Shown piece by piece: positions 8,951 to 64,000 of a stretch of DNA of 64,000 nt. This stretch comes from Candidatus Latescibacterota bacterium (GTDB taxonomy: Bacteria > Latescibacterota > UBA2968 > UBA8231). Both the position numbers and the translations under genes were made by a program. The notes under the pieces were generated by a model that saw only the letters and a program-made list of their open reading frames with translations, searched no databases and was not told where the DNA came from. Within the stretch, counting starts at the first letter, position 1, and the number at the start of each line of letters is the position of its first letter. The stretch spans positions 2,016,001 to 2,080,000 of the forward strand of contig CBDCDC010000002.1 of NCBI GenBank assembly GCA_965215195.1. Direction: 5' to 3'.

Positions 8951-9382
8951 ATGATCCTAAGAAAACTGTTGTTCGGCCCCCCTCCCTCGGCCGGCATTGG
9001 CTACTCACTGGGGCTACTGCTGTTGAGGGTGACCGTCGGTGGCATGATGCTGGCCGGTCACGGCTGGGGCAAGTTGACCAGCTTTGCGGAGCGTTCTTCC
9101 TCGTTCCCCGACCCCTTGGGCATCGGATCGTCCCTGAGCATGGCCTTGGCCACCGGTGCCGAAGCATTTTGCGCCCTAGCGGTGATTTTGGGATTCGCCA
9201 CCCGCTGGGCTGTCGTGCCGCTCATGGTCACCATGCTAGTGGCCGCGCTTATCGTACACGGGGACGATCCTTGGGCGAAAAAGGAATTCGCCCTATTGTA
9301 CTTTTTCCCCTTTGCCGCGTTGCTTCTAACGGGCGCGGGGTGCTACTCCCTCGACGCCTTCTTCCGGCGCGGGGCGCGTTAA
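8951..9382 (+). CDS. DoxX family membrane protein
   Basis: LLLLRV..G...HGWGK, FPDPLGIG, GAGCYSLD. Confidence 0.88.
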   Translation: MILRKLLFGPPPSAGIGYSLGLLLLRVTVGGMMLAGHGWGKLTSFAERSSSFPDPLGIGSSLSMALATGAEAFCALAVILGFATRWAVVPLMVTMLVAALIVHGDDPWAKKEFALLYFFPFAALLLTGAGCYSLDAFFRRGAR

Positions 9383-9617
9383 GAAGCGGTCTGAAAATTC
9401 CGCGAACCGTCCCTTGTGTGCAGCAAACAATCTAGGAGCGAGGGCGGCTCGCCCTCAAAAAACGCCCCATCCGAAGGCGTCTCGCCCTCGAAAAACGCCC
9501 CATCCGAGGGCCTCTCGCCCTCGAAAAACGCTCCCTCCGAGGGCCGCTTGACCGCTACTCAACGCGGTCCGACAGGGGTTTGTCACGCCTAAAGGCGCGG
9601 TGAAGCAGACGGCTTCT
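9382..9617 (+). mobile_element. MITE-like repeat, family A copy 1
   Basis: Ends AGAAGCGGTCTG...CAGACGGCTTCT; three internal 33-bp units containing the GAGGGCGnnnCGCCCTC hairpin; homologous copies at 19779, 36048 and 63474. Confidence 0.8.
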
Positions 9618-9673
9618 TAAGCTTGTACCGCCCAAAGTCGGCGTATATCCAGACAGCTTCTACGTTCCCGACC

Positions 9674-19619: not shown

Positions 19620-19778
19620 CCGCCAACAAGAGCAATGTCGCGCCTGAAGGTAGGGGGAAGTGCGTCTGATGTGTTCATCGGCGTTTATTGGAATAGTCTG
19701 AATGGCCTCTTTGATCGGGTTGCTCTCCCACCGCAGAGAGGCGTCGCGTTCTATCGGCAAAGGCGAGCGAATAGGGCT

Positions 19779-19955
19779 AAACCCCCGGCGGACCGCGTTG
19801 AGTAGCGGTCAAGCGGCCCTCGGATGGAGCGTTTTTCGAGGGCGAGACGCCCGCGATCCTAGGCGGATGGCGCGTTTTGCGAGGGCGAGACGCCCTCGAT
19901 CCTCGATTGTTTGCTGCACACAAGGGACGATACCCGGAACTTTCAGACCGCTTCT
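19779..19955 (-). mobile_element. MITE-like repeat, family A copy 2 (distal end truncated)
   Basis: Reverse strand begins AGAAGCGGTCTGAAAG and contains two GAGGGCGTCTCGCCCTC-type units. Confidence 0.8.
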
Positions 19956-21132
19956 AAGGCAGGGCCTCGAGAAGGCGATCGATATCCTCGTGGTTGTTGT
20001 ACACCGAGGGTGAGAGGCGCATCTTGTTGCCGAAACGCATCGCCACCTGAACATTGGCACTCCTGCAACTGGCCAAGACCGCTTCGGGGTGTGGAGCTAC
20101 GAAGGAGAGTATGGGGCTTTCGTTCCCCTGCGGCGTGATCGATTTGTACCCCCTCTGCGGCAACTCCTCCTGCAGGCGATCGGTCAGGTCTCTCGCGTGG
20201 TTGCGGATTCTGTCGACTCCGAGGCGCAGGATGTACTGCAGGCTCTCCTGGGCGCACACGACTCCTTCGTACGAGGGGTAACTGACCTCGTAGGCACCGA
20301 CTCCGGTCGGGGATGAAAACGATATCTCCTCTCTGGCCGAATCGGGCTCTTCCACCCAGGGGGGATAGTTGAGTGTCACACCACCCGTGGGCTGAGACGG
20401 TTTGAGTACGTCGAGCTGCAGATCGGAGCGAACGTACAGAAACCCAAACCCTTTGACGCCCATCAGCCACTTGAACGTCGAACAAGCCGCAAAGTCGATG
20501 CCCATCGCCTTGACGTCGATCGGAACACCGCCCGCAGCTTGCATGATATCGACATACAGATACGCGCCGTTGTCGTGAGCCAGCTTGCTCAGCGCCGCGA
20601 CATCTGCGACATACCCATTGACGTTTGACACCAATGCCACCGAGATCAGCCGGGTGTTGCCATCGACCGCGTCTTCCATGGCGGCCATGTCGATTTGCCA
20701 GTTGCGATGTGTCGCCAATACTGGCGACAGACTGCTCTTGACGATCCGCACATCGAGACCTTGCTGCTCGCGAAACTTGTAATTGTATATGCAGGGGTTG
20801 AAATTCAGATCCGACATCACCACATTGCCGCCCGCCAGATGATCCCGCAAGCCGTTGAGAATATTGCTCTCCGATTCCACCGTGCTGCGCGCAAAGGCGA
20901 TTTCTCCGGGATCGGCGTTGATGAGCCGGGCAAATAGGGCCTTGGCCTCGGCTCGCGGCGGTGCCCAGGCCGGCCACCACGGCTCCCCCACTTCGTGCGC
21001 GACCCAATCGACGTACCGGTGCAGGGCCGCCACCGAATGTACACTGATCGGATGCGACGAGGCGTTGTCGAAGTACGCCATGGTCCGCGCGCGCGGGAAG
21101 TCTTCGCGCACTCTCTCGAAAAGATCTGTCAT
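19954..21132 (-). CDS. Aminotransferase class V / cysteine desulfurase-like PLP enzyme
   Basis: YFDNAS, VDIMQAAG, STFKWLMG (PLP lysine), RLSPSVYN. Confidence 0.88.
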   Translation of the reverse strand: MTDLFERVREDFPRARTMAYFDNASSHPISVHSVAALHRYVDWVAHEVGEPWWPAWAPPRAEAKALFARLINADPGEIAFARSTVESESNILNGLRDHLAGGNVVMSDLNFNPCIYNYKFREQQGLDVRIVKSSLSPVLATHRNWQIDMAAMEDAVDGNTRLISVALVSNVNGYVADVAALSKLAHDNGAYLYVDIMQAAGGVPIDVKAMGIDFAACSTFKWLMGVKGFGFLYVRSDLQLDVLKPSQPTGGVTLNYPPWVEEPDSAREEISFSSPTGVGAYEVSYPSYEGVVCAQESLQYILRLGVDRIRNHARDLTDRLQEELPQRGYKSITPQGNESPILSFVAPHPEAVLASCRSANVQVAMRFGNKMRLSPSVYNNHEDIDRLLEALP

Positions 21133-21173: not shown

Positions 21174-21342
21174 CTGATGTTACGCATGGGCATCTGGGTA
21201 TCAGATGCTTTGACTCCGCTTCGCTGCGCTCAGCATGACGCGGAGAAGCAGCAAACTAGCATTTGTCATGCTGAGCGTAGCGCTTCACCGCGCCTTTAGG
21301 CGTGACAGCATCCCATACCTAGGGGCCTGTGCCTAACATCAG
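21174..21342. mobile_element. MITE family B with 13-bp TIR and 7-bp target duplication, carrying a REP-like pair
   Basis: CTGATGTTACGCA...TGCCTAACATCAG flanked on both sides by TCATAAT; internal cgctgcgctcagcatgac / gtcatgctgagcgtagcg inverted pair. Confidence 0.82.
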
Positions 21343-33145: not shown

Positions 33146-36049
33146 ATGTTACGGTTATCTCGATTACTTCTCGTATCTCATCTTTTTGTTATCACCTCTG
33201 TTTCAGTATCTGCCCAGCTCACCATTGAGGGCACCGTTACTGACGAACGAGGTGAGGGTCTGCCTGGTGCCAATGTCATTGTGGTTGGAACGACACTGGG
33301 TACGGCCGCTGATGCCGAGGGCCATTTTACGCTATTGCTGCCGGAACCAGAAGAAGCGACCCTGCTAGAGGCGCGTTCTGTGGGCTATAAATCAGCCAGA
33401 CAAGTTATTCGCCGCGACAACGGTTTGGCAAAAGTACGTTTCGCGCTCACAGTGGATGCACTGCAATTTGATGAAATCGTCGTCACCGGTGTTTCAGTTG
33501 CCGCCAGCAAAAAGCAATTGGGCAATGCCATTTCCACGGTTACTGAGTTGAGCTCTACCGGGGCCACGTCCCTCGACAAGGCACTGACTGGTAAATTTTC
33601 CGGGGCCTTAATTCAGCAAAATTCGGGCAAGCCGGCCGGTGGGACGACCATTCGTTTGCGCGGGACCAGTACGGTTCTCGGCGCGGCCGATCCGCTCTAT
33701 GTCGTGGATGGTGTCATTGTGAGCAATGATTCGCCCGAACTCATCTTACTCGGCGGCGGGGCGCAAAACCGGCTCGTCGATCTAAATCCCAACGATGTAG
33801 AGCGAGTTGAGGTAGTGAAGGGTGCCGCTGCCGCTGCCCTTTACGGCTCGCGTGCCAACAATGGCGTCGTGCAGGTATTCACCAAGCGTGGCTCACAGGG
33901 CAAGCCGCGGATTACCTATACGTCTCGTCTTTCAACGGCAACTGTCCGCAAAACACTAGATGTAAATAGGGCCACCGTAGACAACAGCGGGAATAAGAAT
34001 CCCGATGGCTCCGACGTGCAGCGTTTTGATCATCAGGACTTCATCTTTAGACGCGCCGCCGGAACGGAGCAGTACTTGTCGGTTGCGGGTGGCTCTGGAA
34101 ATACTCGTTATTTTGCCTCTGGTTCCTACCTCGCTGATGAAGGCGTGGTGGAAAATACCTCGTTTCGGCGGATCAGTGGACGGACCCGTATCGACCAAGA
34201 TTTGTCGGGTTGGGCTACCCTGTCTATGGGTGGGAATTTCATATTTAGCGAAAGCGATGACATTCCCAACGGCGGATTAAATTCAAACTATGGTGCTCTG
34301 ACAGGTTTTATTTTTGGCCCTAATACATACGATCCCACGCCCGATGCATTGGGTGTTTACCCAAGCGATGGAGTCCTCGCCAATCCATTAGAGGTCGTCG
34401 AGCGATATGATTTTAATCAAGAGGTCACCCGCTATATTGGAAATGCACAGTTAACCGTAGCTCCGCTATCTGGCTTGAGTATTGACTATACTTTGGGAGT
34501 CGATTCCTACGATCAAACGGCCCTAGCCTTTATACCGGCCGGCACATCCGCACCGGGCTTGGCAAATGGTCTTTCTCGAAGGGGTGTGTTCGACTTCTTA
34601 CAACTCAATAATGATGTCAATATAAGCTACCAGCGCAGCATGTCCTCTCAGGTACAGTCAACCACCCTTGTCGGCGGGACGCTACAGTACGAAAAAGGAG
34701 AAAACTTCAGTGCCGAAGCCAAGGATCTAAGTCCCGTTGCAGAAACCGTAGCAAGCGGTGCGACTGTGGTCGCCGGCGAGTTTAGAAGTGAGCGAGCCAT
34801 TTATGGTGTATTTGCCCAGCAGACCGTTGGGATTGCCAACCGATTTTTTTTCACAGGCGCTGCTCGCGTCGACGCCTCTTCAGTATACGACGCGGATAAC
34901 CGCTGGCAATTTTATCCAAAGGCGAGTGCTTCATATCTCATTTCAGAGGCCGGCTTCTGGCAAAATAGCGCACTGCAAAACATTCTTGCGGCTTGCAAGT
35001 TGCGAGCTGCTATAGGAACTTCGGGTGGTCAGACGGCGATTGGCGCGTACGACCGCTTCACCAACTACAATGCCTCCTCTTATGACGGCAACCCCGGGTT
35101 GGTCCCGAGCACTCAGATCGGCGGGGCGATCAAACCCGAAAGGCAGCGAGAAATAGAAGTAGGTGCGGATTTTAGTCTCCTATCCAATCGCCTCGGGCTG
35201 GAACTGACATACTACGATCAGCACATCGACGACTTGTTGTTATTCCGCACGTTGTCGCCGTCCACAGGTCACTTGCGGATCTTGCAGAATGTAGGTGCGA
35301 TGGATAACGCCGGGCTGGAACTTCTCGTCCGTGCGATTCCGCTTGAACGTCCTGCTCTGCGCTGGGAATCGACCTTCACTTATTTGGCTAACAAAAATAA
35401 CGTCAGTGGAATCGAGGGCGAGCGGTTGATCATACCAAATTCGTTTAGCCAAGTGTCAGCCATCAACGGGGAACCACTCGGAGTTTTCTTCAGCACGGCA
35501 TTTGAACGCGACGACAATGGGAATATCGCACTCGATGCAGACGCGCTCCCGCTTCGAGCGGCTGAGCGCAAAATTATTGGCGACCCCAACCCGGACTTTA
35601 CCGCTTCACTTATCAACGAGGTTACAGTGGGTCGGAACTGGTCATTGCGCGCTCAATTAGACGCCATCGTAGGGGGCGATGTATTTAACTTTACCCGCCG
35701 CTTGGCCGCTGCGGGATCGTTCGGCGTTTTGACGGATTATGAACGCGAGTTAAATGGCGAACTCCCTGCTGGCTATAATTCGCGGGTCTTCCGAATTTTT
35801 GAGCACTGGGTCGAGGATGGCTCCTTTGTGAAGTTGCGCGAACTGTCGGCGTCTTATCTATGGCAGCTAGGGAAGGCGAATAGTATTCGATTTAGCCTAG
35901 TTGGACGCAATTTGTTTTCCATAGATGACTACAGCGGGTACGATCCAGAAACCAACGTCGCGGGACAGCGCACAGCAGTGCGCGGATTTGATTTTGTCGA
36001 AGTGCCAATTCCACGTAGTTTTTCATTCAGTGTAAGCCTTAACTACTAG
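33146..36049 (+). CDS. SusC/RagA-family TonB-dependent receptor
   Basis: N-terminal carboxypeptidase-like domain, PLYVVDGV, EVVKGAAAAALYGSRANNGV, EDGSFVKLRE, YSGYDPE. Confidence 0.93.
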   Translation: MLRLSRLLLVSHLFVITSVSVSAQLTIEGTVTDERGEGLPGANVIVVGTTLGTAADAEGHFTLLLPEPEEATLLEARSVGYKSARQVIRRDNGLAKVRFALTVDALQFDEIVVTGVSVAASKKQLGNAISTVTELSSTGATSLDKALTGKFSGALIQQNSGKPAGGTTIRLRGTSTVLGAADPLYVVDGVIVSNDSPELILLGGGAQNRLVDLNPNDVERVEVVKGAAAAALYGSRANNGVVQVFTKRGSQGKPRITYTSRLSTATVRKTLDVNRATVDNSGNKNPDGSDVQRFDHQDFIFRRAAGTEQYLSVAGGSGNTRYFASGSYLADEGVVENTSFRRISGRTRIDQDLSGWATLSMGGNFIFSESDDIPNGGLNSNYGALTGFIFGPNTYDPTPDALGVYPSDGVLANPLEVVERYDFNQEVTRYIGNAQLTVAPLSGLSIDYTLGVDSYDQTALAFIPAGTSAPGLANGLSRRGVFDFLQLNNDVNISYQRSMSSQVQSTTLVGGTLQYEKGENFSAEAKDLSPVAETVASGATVVAGEFRSERAIYGVFAQQTVGIANRFFFTGAARVDASSVYDADNRWQFYPKASASYLISEAGFWQNSALQNILAACKLRAAIGTSGGQTAIGAYDRFTNYNASSYDGNPGLVPSTQIGGAIKPERQREIEVGADFSLLSNRLGLELTYYDQHIDDLLLFRTLSPSTGHLRILQNVGAMDNAGLELLVRAIPLERPALRWESTFTYLANKNNVSGIEGERLIIPNSFSQVSAINGEPLGVFFSTAFERDDNGNIALDADALPLRAAERKIIGDPNPDFTASLINEVTVGRNWSLRAQLDAIVGGDVFNFTRRLAAAGSFGVLTDYERELNGELPAGYNSRVFRIFEHWVEDGSFVKLRELSASYLWQLGKANSIRFSLVGRNLFSIDDYSGYDPETNVAGQRTAVRGFDFVEVPIPRSFSFSVSLNY

Positions 36050-36267
36050 AAGCGGTCTGAAAATTCCGCGAACCGTCCCTTGTGTGCAGCAAACAATCGA
36101 GGATCGAGGGCGTCTCGCCCTAGGGTCAGTTTATGCCGTTAGACAGCTCCCCATCGGTGCAGCAAACAATCGAGGATCGAGGGCGTCTCGCCCTCGAAAA
36201 ACGCGCCATCCGAGAGCCTCTCAACCGCTACTCAGCGCGGTCCGCCGAGGGTTTGCAGACCGCTTCT
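36048..36267 (+). mobile_element. MITE-like repeat, family A copy 3 (complete, with internal duplication)
   Basis: AGAAGCGGTCTG...CAGACCGCTTCT perfect TIR; 38-bp internal direct repeat at 36084-36121 and 36157-36194. Confidence 0.85.
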
Positions 36268-36383
36268 AAGACGCGCGTCGGGTGTCAGGTATCAGTGGCC
36301 GGTCCCGGGGGACGCTTCACCAGCCCACGAACTACGAAGCTAGCACCAGAATTTTAAGAAGGCTGCTAAACGAGAAAAAGAGA

Positions 36384-37697
36384 ATGACGACGTCAAATCA
36401 CTTGGAGATAGCAATTGTTTCTGGATTGCTGTTTTTGGGCGCATTCGGTTGCGATCTGAATATATCGAATCCAAACCAAGCTTTCGAAGAGCAGGTCTTG
36501 AGGACCAGCGTTGGCATCAAAGCCTTGGCCATTGGAATGCAACGAGATTACGCAAGTAATAATGTCGATTCTTATGTTCGTCATCCGGCAATTACAAGCC
36601 GCGAGCTTGCGGCAAATACGACGTTTTCCAATCTCGTAGAATTAGAGGATGGCCTCGATGCGTTATCCGGGGCCAACAGCGCGGTCAGTGCTATTTGGTT
36701 TGATTCATATCGCGTAATCGGCATGGCCGACGATTTGATCGGCAACGCGCCTAAGGTGCCACTCGCAGAGGGTACGCGCAGCGGCATTTTGGCACTGGCT
36801 CACCTCTACAAAGCGATGTGTCTGGGATTTGTAGCGCAGGCTTTTGAACGAGCACCGCTAGATGTACAGGCCGATGGACGAGCACCTTTCGCGTTGCGAA
36901 CTGAACTATTTGCCGAGGCGATTCGATTGTTAGACCATGCGCTGCAAACCATAACTGCCACCCCGCCATCCGCTGAATTCAACTCAGCTATCTTGGGAAG
37001 CGGTTTCGATCTCGTCAACACGATCCACGCTTATCGGGCGCGCTATAGCTTGTTTTCGGGGAACTACCAAGCCGCAATTGAGGCCGCCAATGCCGTCGAC
37101 CCGTGGGCGACTTCTGTCTATACTTACGATGCGGAAAATCAAAATCCCATTTACACACAAGTTCTTGTTTTCGACGACTATGCTCCGAGAGACAATTTCG
37201 GGATTCTGGGCGCGGACAGCGCCGATGCGAGACTTGCATTTTACTTGGTTCCCAATGATAGGACGAGCAATCCTAATGACTTTCCGGTTGAAAGTTTAGC
37301 CGGCTTTTGGAGCACAGCAACTTCGCCTATTCCGGCCTACCTACCCGGCGAAATGGCTTTGACGCGGGCAGAGGCAAACGCGATGTTGGGAAATGTTGCA
37401 GAGGCGATCGCTGACATCGACGCTATTCGCACAAAAATACCCGCTCAAGACCCTCATGGAATTGGGGCGTCGTTGCCTCCCTACAGTGGCCCACAAACGG
37501 CCGCTGCTGTGATGGACGAGATCTTTCGTCAGCGCCGAGCAGAACTGTTCCTGCATGGTACTGGATGGGAAGACAGCCGACGCCTCGCTCAGCCCGGCCC
37601 ATCGTCCGACCCATTTGAACGAAATCGAAATTTCTACCCCCATGCAGACCAAGAGAGGTTAAACAACCGCAATACGCCAGCCGATCCTGCAAATTAA
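36384..37697 (+). CDS. SusD/RagB-family outer-membrane lipoprotein
   Basis: Lipobox AFGC, LTRAEA, RRAELFLHG..WEDSRR; follows SusC. Confidence 0.88.
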   Translation: MTTSNHLEIAIVSGLLFLGAFGCDLNISNPNQAFEEQVLRTSVGIKALAIGMQRDYASNNVDSYVRHPAITSRELAANTTFSNLVELEDGLDALSGANSAVSAIWFDSYRVIGMADDLIGNAPKVPLAEGTRSGILALAHLYKAMCLGFVAQAFERAPLDVQADGRAPFALRTELFAEAIRLLDHALQTITATPPSAEFNSAILGSGFDLVNTIHAYRARYSLFSGNYQAAIEAANAVDPWATSVYTYDAENQNPIYTQVLVFDDYAPRDNFGILGADSADARLAFYLVPNDRTSNPNDFPVESLAGFWSTATSPIPAYLPGEMALTRAEANAMLGNVAEAIADIDAIRTKIPAQDPHGIGASLPPYSGPQTAAAVMDEIFRQRRAELFLHGTGWEDSRRLAQPGPSSDPFERNRNFYPHADQERLNNRNTPADPAN

Positions 37698-56353: not shown

Positions 56354-56941
56354 ATGACCCCTGAAATATCTGAGATAACCACCCGCGACGTGTTGCAGCA
56401 GATCAACCGCCGCTTGGAGCTGATTGAAAGCGACGTGCGAGTCGTCAGTGAGAAGTTAGATGTGTCGGCTCAGACCCTGCGCGATGAGAATGCCGCGTCG
56501 TATCGGAGCCTGAATGAGAAATGGGATGCGTCGGTTCAGACCCTGCACGAGAAAATCGACACCTCGGCTCAGGGGCTGGATGAGAAGCGAGAAGCATCGG
56601 CTCAGACCCTGCACGAGAAAATCGACACCTCGGTTCAGACGCTGCGCGATGAGAATGCCGCGTCGTATCGGAGCCTGAATGAGAAGTGGGATGCGTCGGT
56701 TCAGACGCTACGCGATGAGAGCGCCGCATCGGTTCAGACCCTGCACGAGAAAATCGACACCTCGGCTCAGGGGCTGGATGAGAAGCGAGAAGCATCGGCT
56801 CAGACGCTAAATGATAAGATCGACACGTCGGTTCAAAAGCTCCACGAGAAGATCGACACCTATTTCCGCTGGACCATCGGCATCGTACTCGCTAGCTGGT
56901 TGTCCACCATGGGCGCGATCCTGTTCAAGGGATCCTTGTAG
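56354..56941 (+). CDS. Coiled-coil protein of 11-aa repeats with C-terminal TM (DUF1640/Bdr-like architecture)
   Basis: About 12 units of the SxQTLHEKIDT type; FRWTIGIVLASWL TM; GAGGAG RBS. Confidence 0.75.
   Translation: MTPEISEITTRDVLQQINRRLELIESDVRVVSEKLDVSAQTLRDENAASYRSLNEKWDASVQTLHEKIDTSAQGLDEKREASAQTLHEKIDTSVQTLRDENAASYRSLNEKWDASVQTLRDESAASVQTLHEKIDTSAQGLDEKREASAQTLNDKIDTSVQKLHEKIDTYFRWTIGIVLASWLSTMGAILFKGSL
56466..56860 (+). repeat. Coding 33-bp tandem repeat with higher-order block duplication
   Basis: tcggctcagaccctgcacgagaaaatcgacacc-like units; multi-unit blocks recur. Confidence 0.85.
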
Positions 56942-63473: not shown

Positions 63474-63585
63474 AGAAACCGTCGGGCTGCTTCGGCGTCC
63501 GGCGTTTTTCGCGGGCGAGACGCCCTCAATCCCAGCGGCTCGGAGTCAAGGCCGAGAGCGAAACCTTCGTTTTCAGATGGCTTCT
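63474..63585 (-). mobile_element. Divergent family-A MITE-like element
   Basis: Reverse strand AGAAGCCATCTGAAAA...GAGGGCGTCTCGCCC...GACGGTTTCT. Confidence 0.6.
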
Positions 63586-64000
63586 AAAGCTCTCTTACCT
63601 CAATCAGTGAGTTGATTGCAATGGGGCCAGAGACAATCTGTTCCCTCCCCGAGGGCCAGCGCACGGCGATCTGATCGACCACTTCGGCATTGCCCAGCCC
63701 AAAGTAGAGTGGATAGAGACTTTGGGAAAGGTAGCCCGACTGTCCATCGTAGACTTTGGTATAAGTCTGGGTGCCAACTCGAACCTTCACCGTGGCACCC
63801 AGCCCGCTGCGGTTCGACGCTGTGCCGATTAGCTCAACCTTGAGAAAAGACAGGTTCTGCTTTTTAGCACTCAGATTGCTGATCAGCACAGTAGGCGCGG
63901 AATTAAAATCGTTGGTGACGATATCCAAGTCGCCGTCGTTGTCCAAGTCGAAGATCGCCGAAGAACGGCTTCCCAATGCGCCCCAAACCACAACAGCGCC
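63584..64000 (-). CDS. CRTAC1/ASPIC-UnbV (FG-GAP) protein, C-terminal part
   Basis: DLDNDGDLDI, SNRSGLGATV, SGYLSQS..LYFGLG, VRWPSG. Confidence 0.88.
   Translation of the reverse strand, partial: GAVVVWGALGSRSSAIFDLDNDGDLDIVTNDFNSAPTVLISNLSAKKQNLSFLKVELIGTASNRSGLGATVKVRVGTQTYTKVYDGQSGYLSQSLYPLYFGLGNAEVVDQIAVRWPSGREQIVSGPIAINSLIEVREL

Follow-up and report, generated by a model that had tools for sequence, protein, structure and literature searches.

The stretch of DNA analysed here (64,000 nucleotides, referred to as the window) belongs to a Candidatus Latescibacterota bacterium with a genome of 6.13 Mb, assembled in two contigs and with a G+C content of 60%. The feature under study, positions 36084-36194, is located in the intergenic region between two plus-strand genes. 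The upstream gene (33146..36049) encodes a SusC-like TonB-dependent receptor of 967 aa with the Pfam domains CarbopepD_reg_2 and Plug, and the downstream gene (36384..37697) encodes a SusD/RagB-like protein of 437 aa (Pfam SusD_RagB, E = 9.4e-9). No Rfam family reached its threshold when positions 35900-36500 were scanned with E values up to 10, and the sole sub-threshold match, Spd-sr37 (25.3 bits against a gathering score of 45), was located at 36376-36445, outside the repeat element described below.

The 38-bp sequence GTGCAGCAAACAATCGAGGATCGAGGGCGTCTCGCCCT was found at 36084-36121 and again at 36157-36194, with 35 bp between the two copies and no mismatches of one copy to the other, which confirms the exact duplication reported in the original prediction. 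A search of the window with up to 3 mismatches returned four matches, while 100 shuffles returned none; the remaining two matches, on the minus strand at 9418-9455 and 19882-19919, are located in other copies of the dispersed repeat named family A in the original prediction. The T at position 36121 is ambiguous in that it fits the duplication and the 23S rRNA gene (see below) alike, and the structure can therefore be read either as 37+36+37 bp or as 38+35+38 bp. All three parts are given on the plus strand. The left target copy (R1) occupies 36084..36120 (38 bp if extended to 36121), the inserted "spacer" occupies 36121..36156 and is 36 bp long (35 bp if it begins at 36122), and the right target copy (R2), identical to R1, occupies 36157..36193, or 38 bp if extended to 36194. 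The period of the structure is 73 bp.

The host element extends over 36047..36270 (plus strand) and begins inside the TAG stop codon of the upstream SusC-like gene. Family A has 12-bp terminal inverted repeats, which at this locus are AGAAGCGGTCTG (36048-36059) and CAGACCGCTTCT (36256-36267), and one to four hairpin units that are built on GAGGGCGTCTCGCCCTC, and it is flanked on either side by stop codons of the TA/TTA/CTA type. Its copies are about 150-220 bp long, and the copy at the locus, including the extra block, measures 224 bp. One hairpin, GAGGGCGTCTCGCCCT(C/A), was read from the sequence at 36106..36122 on the plus strand, and its 3' arm contains the right-hand boundary of the insertion. 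The hairpin motif has 136 copies in the genome with up to 2 mismatches, and the 38-mer GTGCAGCAAACAATCGAGGATCGAGGGCGTCTCGCCCT has 21 sites with up to 6 mismatches. On the basis of its terminal inverted repeats, its dispersed copies and its absence from orthologous sites, family A is a MITE/BIME-like dispersed repeat. Internal tandem duplications were also observed in other copies: 33-bp units at 9439-9549, 43-bp units both at C2:1102282 and in the copy at 19821-19903 of the window, and one of 94 bp at C2:4103152. The element is thus prone to recombination by itself.

Four paralogous copies of family A align end to end with the copy at the locus except for one 73-bp block, which is exactly one target copy plus the insert, and these copies thus represent the empty site. 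The orthologous site offers no usable empty-site comparison for this locus because the relatives lack the whole family-A element between their susC and susD genes, where the gap is 66 bp in the relative G036 compared to 334 bp here. In public assemblies from four runs of four studies, the contigs end at about 36076 and restart at about 36185, so that none bridges the repeat and the presence, absence or polymorphism of the block is not readable from them. None of the public runs listed for the locus was an RNA data set. A metagenome scan for 25 bases taken from the end of the gene for the SusC-like receptor returned no match.

The origin of the insert was identified by comparison with the rRNA genes. 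A comparison of a 1.7-kb query with 40 relatives gave, in 18 of them, an isolated match whose limits were exactly positions 822 and 857 of the query (window 36121-36156). The insert is identical at 35 of 36 positions to a segment of the bacterium's own 23S rRNA gene (G000:C2:2560731-2560766), which lies inside an Rfam LSU rRNA match of 2851 bits on the minus strand, and it is thus a copy of a gene located elsewhere in the genome. The SusC and SusD genes are read on the plus strand of the window, and on that strand the insert runs antisense to the 23S rRNA. The sequences of 15 of the 18 relatives were aligned. At the single differing position the bacterium's own 23S gene has a derived T, whereas the insert and all 15 relatives have C; at a second variable position A is present in the insert, the own gene and the congener G018, and G in the other 14 relatives. 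The insert is identical to the 23S gene of G018 at all 36 positions. With both the ancestral C and the shared A, the insert equals the 23S sequence as it stood in this lineage prior to a single derived substitution, or the one found in a very close relative, for example G018, and the one-base difference means that the donor could have been DNA of a relative instead of self DNA. The flanks of the protospacer in the 23S gene do not contain TTC, the PAM of type I-C systems. In the original prediction, only the first 24 bp of the insert were taken as foreign, as a micro-insert ending in GACA and absent from the other family-A copies. Its absence from those copies was borne out by the alignment. 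The proposed length was not, since the whole 35 or 36 bp (36121/36122-36156) derive from the 23S gene and the GACA is internal.

The genome encodes three CRISPR-Cas loci, each with adjacent cas1, cas2 and array, and the three Cas1 matches that exceed the Pfam cut-off in the genome are each located beside a cas2 gene and an array. All native repeats are 37 bp long and end with ATTGAAAC. Array A1 (C2 198005-200354) contains 32 repeats and 31 spacers of 34-40 bp, with periods of 71-77 bp, and is associated with type III-B Cmr genes and a TPR-type CRISPR-associated primase-polymerase (CAPP). The relatives in which this primase-polymerase also occurs are metagenome-assembled genomes of Candidatus Latescibacterota. 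Array A2 (C2 949010-954510), also accompanied by type III-B Cmr genes, contains 71 repeats and 69 normal spacers of 36-45 bp, with periods of 73-82 bp and one aberrant interval of 115 bp. Array A3 (C2 4549945-4552996) contains 43 repeats and 42 spacers of 32-37 bp, with periods of 69-74 bp, and has I-C-like cas genes (cas5, cas8, cas7, cas3 and cas4). The duplication at the locus, 37 bp (38 bp by exact repeat), thus has the length of the repeats of all three arrays, and the insert of 36 (or 35) bp falls within the native spacer span of 32-45 bp. Intervals with a period of 73 bp number 6 of 42 in A3, where they are commonest, 2 of 31 in array A1 and 2 of 70 in array A2. The cas1 gene nearest to the locus is on the same contig, at a distance of about 1.1 Mb.

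The aberrant region of array A2 consists of one repeat that stops after 26 nt, followed by a 40-bp spacer, 10 nt of the end of the previous spacer, and a full repeat. This arrangement corresponds to a 36-bp duplication, made up of 10 nt of spacer end and 26 nt of repeat, that is 11 nt out of register, and the 40-bp spacer within it is 100% identical to a chromosomal short-chain dehydrogenase (SDR) gene. An off-register duplication of 36 bp shows that the spacing of the cuts in this organism is set by a ruler of 36-37 bp that is independent of sequence.

Structures of the same kind were found at other positions in the genome. A scan for exact repeats of at least 28 bp, separated by a spacer of at least 20 bp at a period of 45-160 bp, located outside the arrays and without another match within 1.5 kb, returned 27 isolated repeat-spacer-repeat structures. 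Six structures whose spacer is unrelated to the flanks have a period of 69-78 bp, and five of the six, the locus included, have repeats of 36-38 bp. At least four further scars are thus present, with 36-37-bp duplications around 36-41-bp inserts. The first, at C2:1216715 (36+36), lies in frame in a TPR protein gene; G018, G001 and G010 each have one target copy there, and compared with them the scar is a clean insertion of 72 bp. The second, at C2:3158667 (37+37), is intergenic, and G018 has one target copy there with a 7-bp indel. These two sister scars have clean orthologous empty sites. For the scar at C2:328682 (36+39), a single target-like copy is present in G018 and G012, with an upstream flank that is not alignable. 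The scar at C2:1081246 (37+41) extends the end of a gene for a TerB-DnaJ protein by 26 codons; a DNA search yielded no empty site for it, protein searches found matches in 2 of 30 genomes, and the sole alignable homologue, in G043, ends near the first target copy in a poor alignment. Two weaker candidates were also recorded: C2:422872 (32+37), which is the sixth member of the 69-78-bp set and whose insert matches another chromosomal site at 32 of 33 positions, and C2:1206834 (29+36), whose period of 65 bp is beyond that range. Searches of the relatives gave no empty site for either of them. Across the set of scars the duplications measure 36, 36, 36, 37, 37 and 37/38 bp, and are therefore not always exactly 37 bp. 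No match was obtained when 61-bp pieces across the inserts of C2:1216715 and C2:3158667 were compared with 30 relatives, and 27-mers from the inserts of C2:3158667 and C2:328682 each had no match among viral contigs.

The targets of these events were matched to both strands of the three native repeats, allowing shifts, with 20,000 random sites as the background. The target at the locus is identical to the best native repeat at 16 of 37 positions (p=0.48). The seven ectopic targets as a group have 15-17 identical positions of 37, with p values of 0.23-0.77, and mimicry of the native repeat was rejected as a cue for the choice of target. No leader-like flank was recognised by eye at the locus.

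Sampling of self DNA was documented only for the two type III-B arrays. In array A1, three spacers are full-length, 100% matches to the bacterium's own chromosome, and their sources are the 16S rRNA gene (38/38), a gene encoding a transketolase subunit, and one whose secreted product bears a type IX secretion C-terminal domain. Since all three spacers have the same sense as the transcript, their crRNAs would not pair with it and cannot guide targeting. The rRNA operon, which accounts for about 5 kb of the 6.13 Mb, is the source of two of the seven self-derived inserts, far above the uniform expectation of about 0.006. None of the 105 spacers from the CAPP-linked loci of nine relatives, which were covered in part, matches the rRNA operon, indicating that the rRNA bias is not general. 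For a type III-A system (PMC8860600), rRNA and tRNA loci are described as hotspots of acquisition by Cas1-Cas2, and spacers from these loci as counter-selected when an effector complex is present and able to guide interference; the authors there give this loss as the reason why rRNA spacers had not been seen in natural arrays. A hotspot at the rRNA cluster is likewise described for Pyrococcus furiosus (PMC5737086). An origin of the rRNA-derived spacers from RNA through the CAPP polymerase is not favoured, as the characterised CRISPR-associated primase-polymerases prefer DNA templates (PMC8211822), and no reverse transcriptase was present among the 30 ORFs annotated beside the arrays.

Taken together, the duplicated stretch is very probably the scar of an off-target (ectopic) integration of a spacer by the Cas1-Cas2 machinery of this bacterium. 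The geometry of the locus and the co-occurrence of three cas1-cas2 pairs in the genome point to Cas1-Cas2 as the agent, and any of the three pairs may have acted, since the locus alone does not tell them apart. In the proposed mechanism, Cas1-Cas2 would have carried a 36-bp prespacer derived from the region of the 23S rRNA gene and would have attacked the two strands of the family-A element 37 bp apart, at about 36083/36084 and 36120/36121. The prespacer would then be joined between the cuts, and fill-in of the 37-nt gaps would double the target and yield the order target-spacer-target. The target site would have been hit by chance inside a hairpin-rich copy of family A between the SusC-like and SusD-like genes, and the hairpin arm at the right-hand cut may matter for integration. 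The product would be an inert and neutral scar instead of a working CRISPR array. Because the "repeats" of the scar are unlike the native repeats, no crRNA is expected from it, and this would explain why a spacer from the bacterium's own rRNA is tolerated.

Other explanations for the locus were weighed. An accident of repair or replication, in which mending of a break or stalled fork in the hairpin-rich element involved a template switch from family A to the rRNA operon and back that copied 36 bp and then re-copied 37 bp without Cas1-Cas2, would agree with the 33-, 43- and 94-bp tandem duplications inside other family-A copies, and with the loose resemblance of the last 11 bp of the insert to the family-A motif GC(N)CCATCCG, a likeness that we attribute to chance. 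However, the junctions have no microhomology save the one ambiguous T, and such an accident does not predict sizes equal to those of the native repeat and spacer. In addition, the combination of a 36-37-bp duplication with an unrelated insert of 36-41 bp recurs at loci outside repeats, including the TPR gene and the intergenic region with empty sites, and we regard an accident of this kind as unlikely. A chimeric read or mis-join that placed rRNA sequence in a repeat-rich intergenic region is a concern for a genome that, like those of its relatives, is apparently metagenome-assembled and has a CheckM-type contamination of 8.5%, and the short-read contigs of the four runs do break within the element with none bridging it. 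Chimeras do not produce an exact flanking duplication of 37/38 bp, though, and the insert has the ancestral C and not the base of the bacterium's own 23S gene. Sister scars also lie in frame in genes, and their exact borders are formed by sequence that is single-copy in the relatives. An assembly or consensus artefact is accordingly considered very improbable. Slightly less probable still is an emerging, functional mini-CRISPR ("neo-CRISPR") whose transcript is in use, for example for regulation through an anti-23S spacer. The antisense orientation of the insert relative to the 23S rRNA on the strand of the SusC and SusD genes would suit such a role, and off-target integrations have been proposed as seeds of new arrays. 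Against it, the structure has no more than two repeats with a single spacer, the region contains no Rfam match above threshold, and the repeats lack both the ATTGAAAC end and similarity to native repeats, so that native processing is not expected.

The least probable explanation, with hardly any likelihood left to it, is the one put forward in the original prediction, in which an unnamed system (a one-ended transposon footprint or RT-templated insertion) deposits oligomers that end in GACA, or begin with TGTC on the other strand, with pieces of 24, 26 and 27 bp as its products. As they were delimited there, the three strings do end in GACA or begin with TGTC. The boundary of the 24-mer is wrong, however, since the 23S homology continues for 11-12 bp beyond it, and the 24-mer has only two copies in the genome with up to 4 mismatches. 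The second copy (C2:2560732, one mismatch) lies within the 23S gene, and the 24-mer is not the terminus or footprint of an IS element or transposon. The supposed 26-bp micro-insert (TCACGCCTAAAGGCGCGGTGAAG plus neighbouring bases) is not an insert but a REP-like hairpin module that occurs 69 times in the genome; most of family A carries this module, which is present in 14 of the 17 complete copies that were classified and missing from three family-A loci, this one included. The 27-bp item (window 20709-20735), which had been taken as an insert of the same kind, is instead an in-frame hairpin indel inside a gene, with one similar second copy at C2:2115519; this genome shares the indel with G044 and G012, and G001, G010 and G018 lack it. 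Over-representation of the shared ends was not observed either, as the genome-wide frequencies of GACA and TGTC are 0.0028 and 0.0027, compared to 0.0039 for a uniform 4-mer. The three items are thus unrelated, with boundaries chosen by eye, and a single depositing mechanism is unsupported; nor does the locus need a reverse transcriptase. The "Cas1-like integration" that was also listed as an option does fit, given the native-like sizes of the duplication and the insert and the three cas1-cas2 pairs that are encoded. The statement that no named system accounts for the locus no longer holds, because off-target or "neo-CRISPR" spacer integration is a named process.

At the level of the genome, it is likely, with somewhat less assurance than for the locus itself, that our data represent a natural record of repeated off-target integrations by CRISPR integrases. 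This record would comprise up to eight candidates, three of them with empty-site proof, and would include in-frame insertions of 72-78 bp that add 24-26 residues as well as the one off-register event in an array. One natural genome displays the scar several times, with empty sites in relatives for some of the events and with a fixed ruler of 36-37 bp regardless of the target. If this interpretation is correct, CRISPR adaptation would act as an insertional mutagen of measurable effect and would supply proteins with insertions. The signature, a duplication of repeat length around an insert of spacer length, is simple and searchable, and genomes could be mined for it to gauge the natural fidelity of the integrases and how often CRISPR adaptation damages or remodels genomes. 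The locus would also lend support from nature to the laboratory finding that type III adaptation draws on rRNA loci, with rRNA spacers that are often acquired and purged persisting only where they are harmless and unable to guide interference. The supposed new "micro-insert" system, in turn, can be struck from the list of unknowns.

The process is one that is already known, since the locus displays the features of off-target spacer integration that were tested and lacks those of a canonical array. Nivala, Shipman and Church reportedly described off-target spacer integration by the type I-E system of E. coli in 2018. Papers that cite this work state that off-target integration can give rise to new CRISPR-like ("neo-CRISPR") loci (Nivala et al. 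2018), and according to them it is documented mainly in E. coli with induced Cas1-Cas2, along with circumstantial natural cases in two other species. In a limited collection of papers, no paper was found on natural scars of this kind with empty-site support. The locus is similar to neo-CRISPR integration in that a spacer-sized insert occupies a non-CRISPR site between direct copies of the target, and the duplication has the length of a CRISPR repeat. In contrast to the E. coli case, the events described here are natural and not induced by overexpression, they come from an uncultured lineage, the ruler is 36-37 bp, and the modules are of the III-B and I-C-like types; moreover, the targets are unlike the native repeats, several scars are in frame in protein genes, and one spacer is rRNA-derived.

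In terms of overall layout, the locus is similar to a canonical CRISPR array, with the order repeat-spacer-repeat and a period of 73 bp that is within the native 69-82 bp. Unlike such an array, it has just two repeats, which are unrelated to the native ones, lacks a leader and neighbouring cas genes, and is located inside a dispersed repeat. Transposons and casposons likewise leave a direct duplication around the inserted DNA by a staggered cut and fill-in. Their target-site duplications are roughly 2-15 bp long, whereas the duplications observed here are 36-38 bp and the insert has neither terminal inverted repeats nor a transposase. The host element is similar to MITE, BIME and REP repeats in that it is dispersed and intergenic, has hairpin units that vary in number, and carries an optional REP-like module; it differs in that it matches no Rfam family and begins within the upstream stop codon. 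Finally, compared with the type III-A system (PMC8860600), the rRNA-gene spacers of this genome follow a similar rule and survive only in a non-targeting orientation (16S, in array A1) or at a site outside an array (23S). That system, in contrast, was described for canonical arrays in laboratory strains with induced cas1-cas2, while the record presented here comes from a natural genome whose modules are of type III-B, one of them with a CAPP, or I-C-like.

Further scars, each consisting of a target duplication around a spacer-sized insert, are present on the contig of the window's own genome (G000:C2, CBDCDC010000002.1). The duplications in these sister scars are 36-37 bp long, except for those at C2:422872 and C2:1206834 (32 and 29 bp), and the inserts are 36-41 bp. 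One scar lies in frame within a gene for a TPR protein (G000:C2:1216715-1216822; locus L038, 816-923), and three relatives show empty sites for it; another is intergenic (G000:C2:3158667-3158777; locus L039, 868-978) with an empty site in the relative G018. The same repeat-spacer-repeat arrangement is seen at G000:C2:328682-328792 (locus L036, 783-893), at G000:C2:1081246-1081360 (locus L037, 847-961), and at the two sites with the shorter duplications, G000:C2:422872-422972 (32 bp) and G000:C2:1206834-1206927 (29 bp).

An off-register spacer integration is found inside a native CRISPR array of this genome, A2, outside the window (G000:C2:950465-950590; locus L007/L008). The 36-bp duplication is composed of 10 nt of spacer end and 26 nt of repeat, and the 40-bp spacer between the duplicates is identical to part of a chromosomal short-chain dehydrogenase gene (C2:353741-353780).

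Chromosomal sequence is also present in another native array, A1 (type III-B; G000:C2:198005-200354, outside the window; loci L005/L006), which adjoins a TPR-type CRISPR-associated primase-polymerase. Three of its 31 spacers match the genome's own chromosome at 100% over their full length: one matches the 16S rRNA gene, another a gene for a transketolase subunit, and the third a gene whose secreted product has a type IX secretion C-terminal domain. Each of these spacers has the sense orientation, which leaves it unable to guide targeting. In a close relative, the locus L088 contains the primase-polymerase, cas1 and cas2 together with the start of an array whose repeat is nearly identical to that of A1. 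At this array start, 7 of 13 spacers match the chromosome of the window genome with 89-100% identity, which suggests that this type III-B adaptation module samples chromosomal DNA heavily. The Cmr6 gene in the type III-B locus of A1 (L005:10319-11401, outside the window) has a CspA/CspE-like cold-shock domain at its C-terminus, and the two form one open frame of 360 aa.

A 27-bp in-frame insertion (window 20709-20735), within a minus-strand gene, contains a hairpin with an 8-bp stem (TGTCGCCA..TGGCGACA). It is carried by the window genome and the relatives G044 and G012 and is missing in G001, G010 and G018; one similar copy was found, at G000:C2:2115519. At window 56398-56885, 33-bp tandem units occur in a run inside an apparent coding region, where a 191-nt register is present in 9 overlapping copies that are 61-77% alike.

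The susC/susD pair around the main scar, compared over window 35300-37000, has a DNA identity of 79-80% to genomes of another family in its class and only 75-78% to genomes of its own genus, and it may therefore have been horizontally transferred. The family-A hairpin repeats, one of which hosts this scar, are located at window 9380-9625, 19775-19955 (minus strand), 36047-36270 and 63480-63590 (minus strand). These copies start within the TAA or TAG stop codon that closes the gene upstream, and in complete copies the far end gives a stop codon when read on the opposite strand, so that convergent genes can obtain stops from either end. Depending on the copy, 1 to 4 hairpin units are present. 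The REP-like hairpin module TCACGCCTAAAGGCGCGGTGAAG (window 9582-9605 and 21283-21306; 69 copies genome-wide) is found within family A, of which it is an optional component, and elsewhere in the genome in other settings, and the intergenic repeats are thus mosaic, in the manner of BIMEs.
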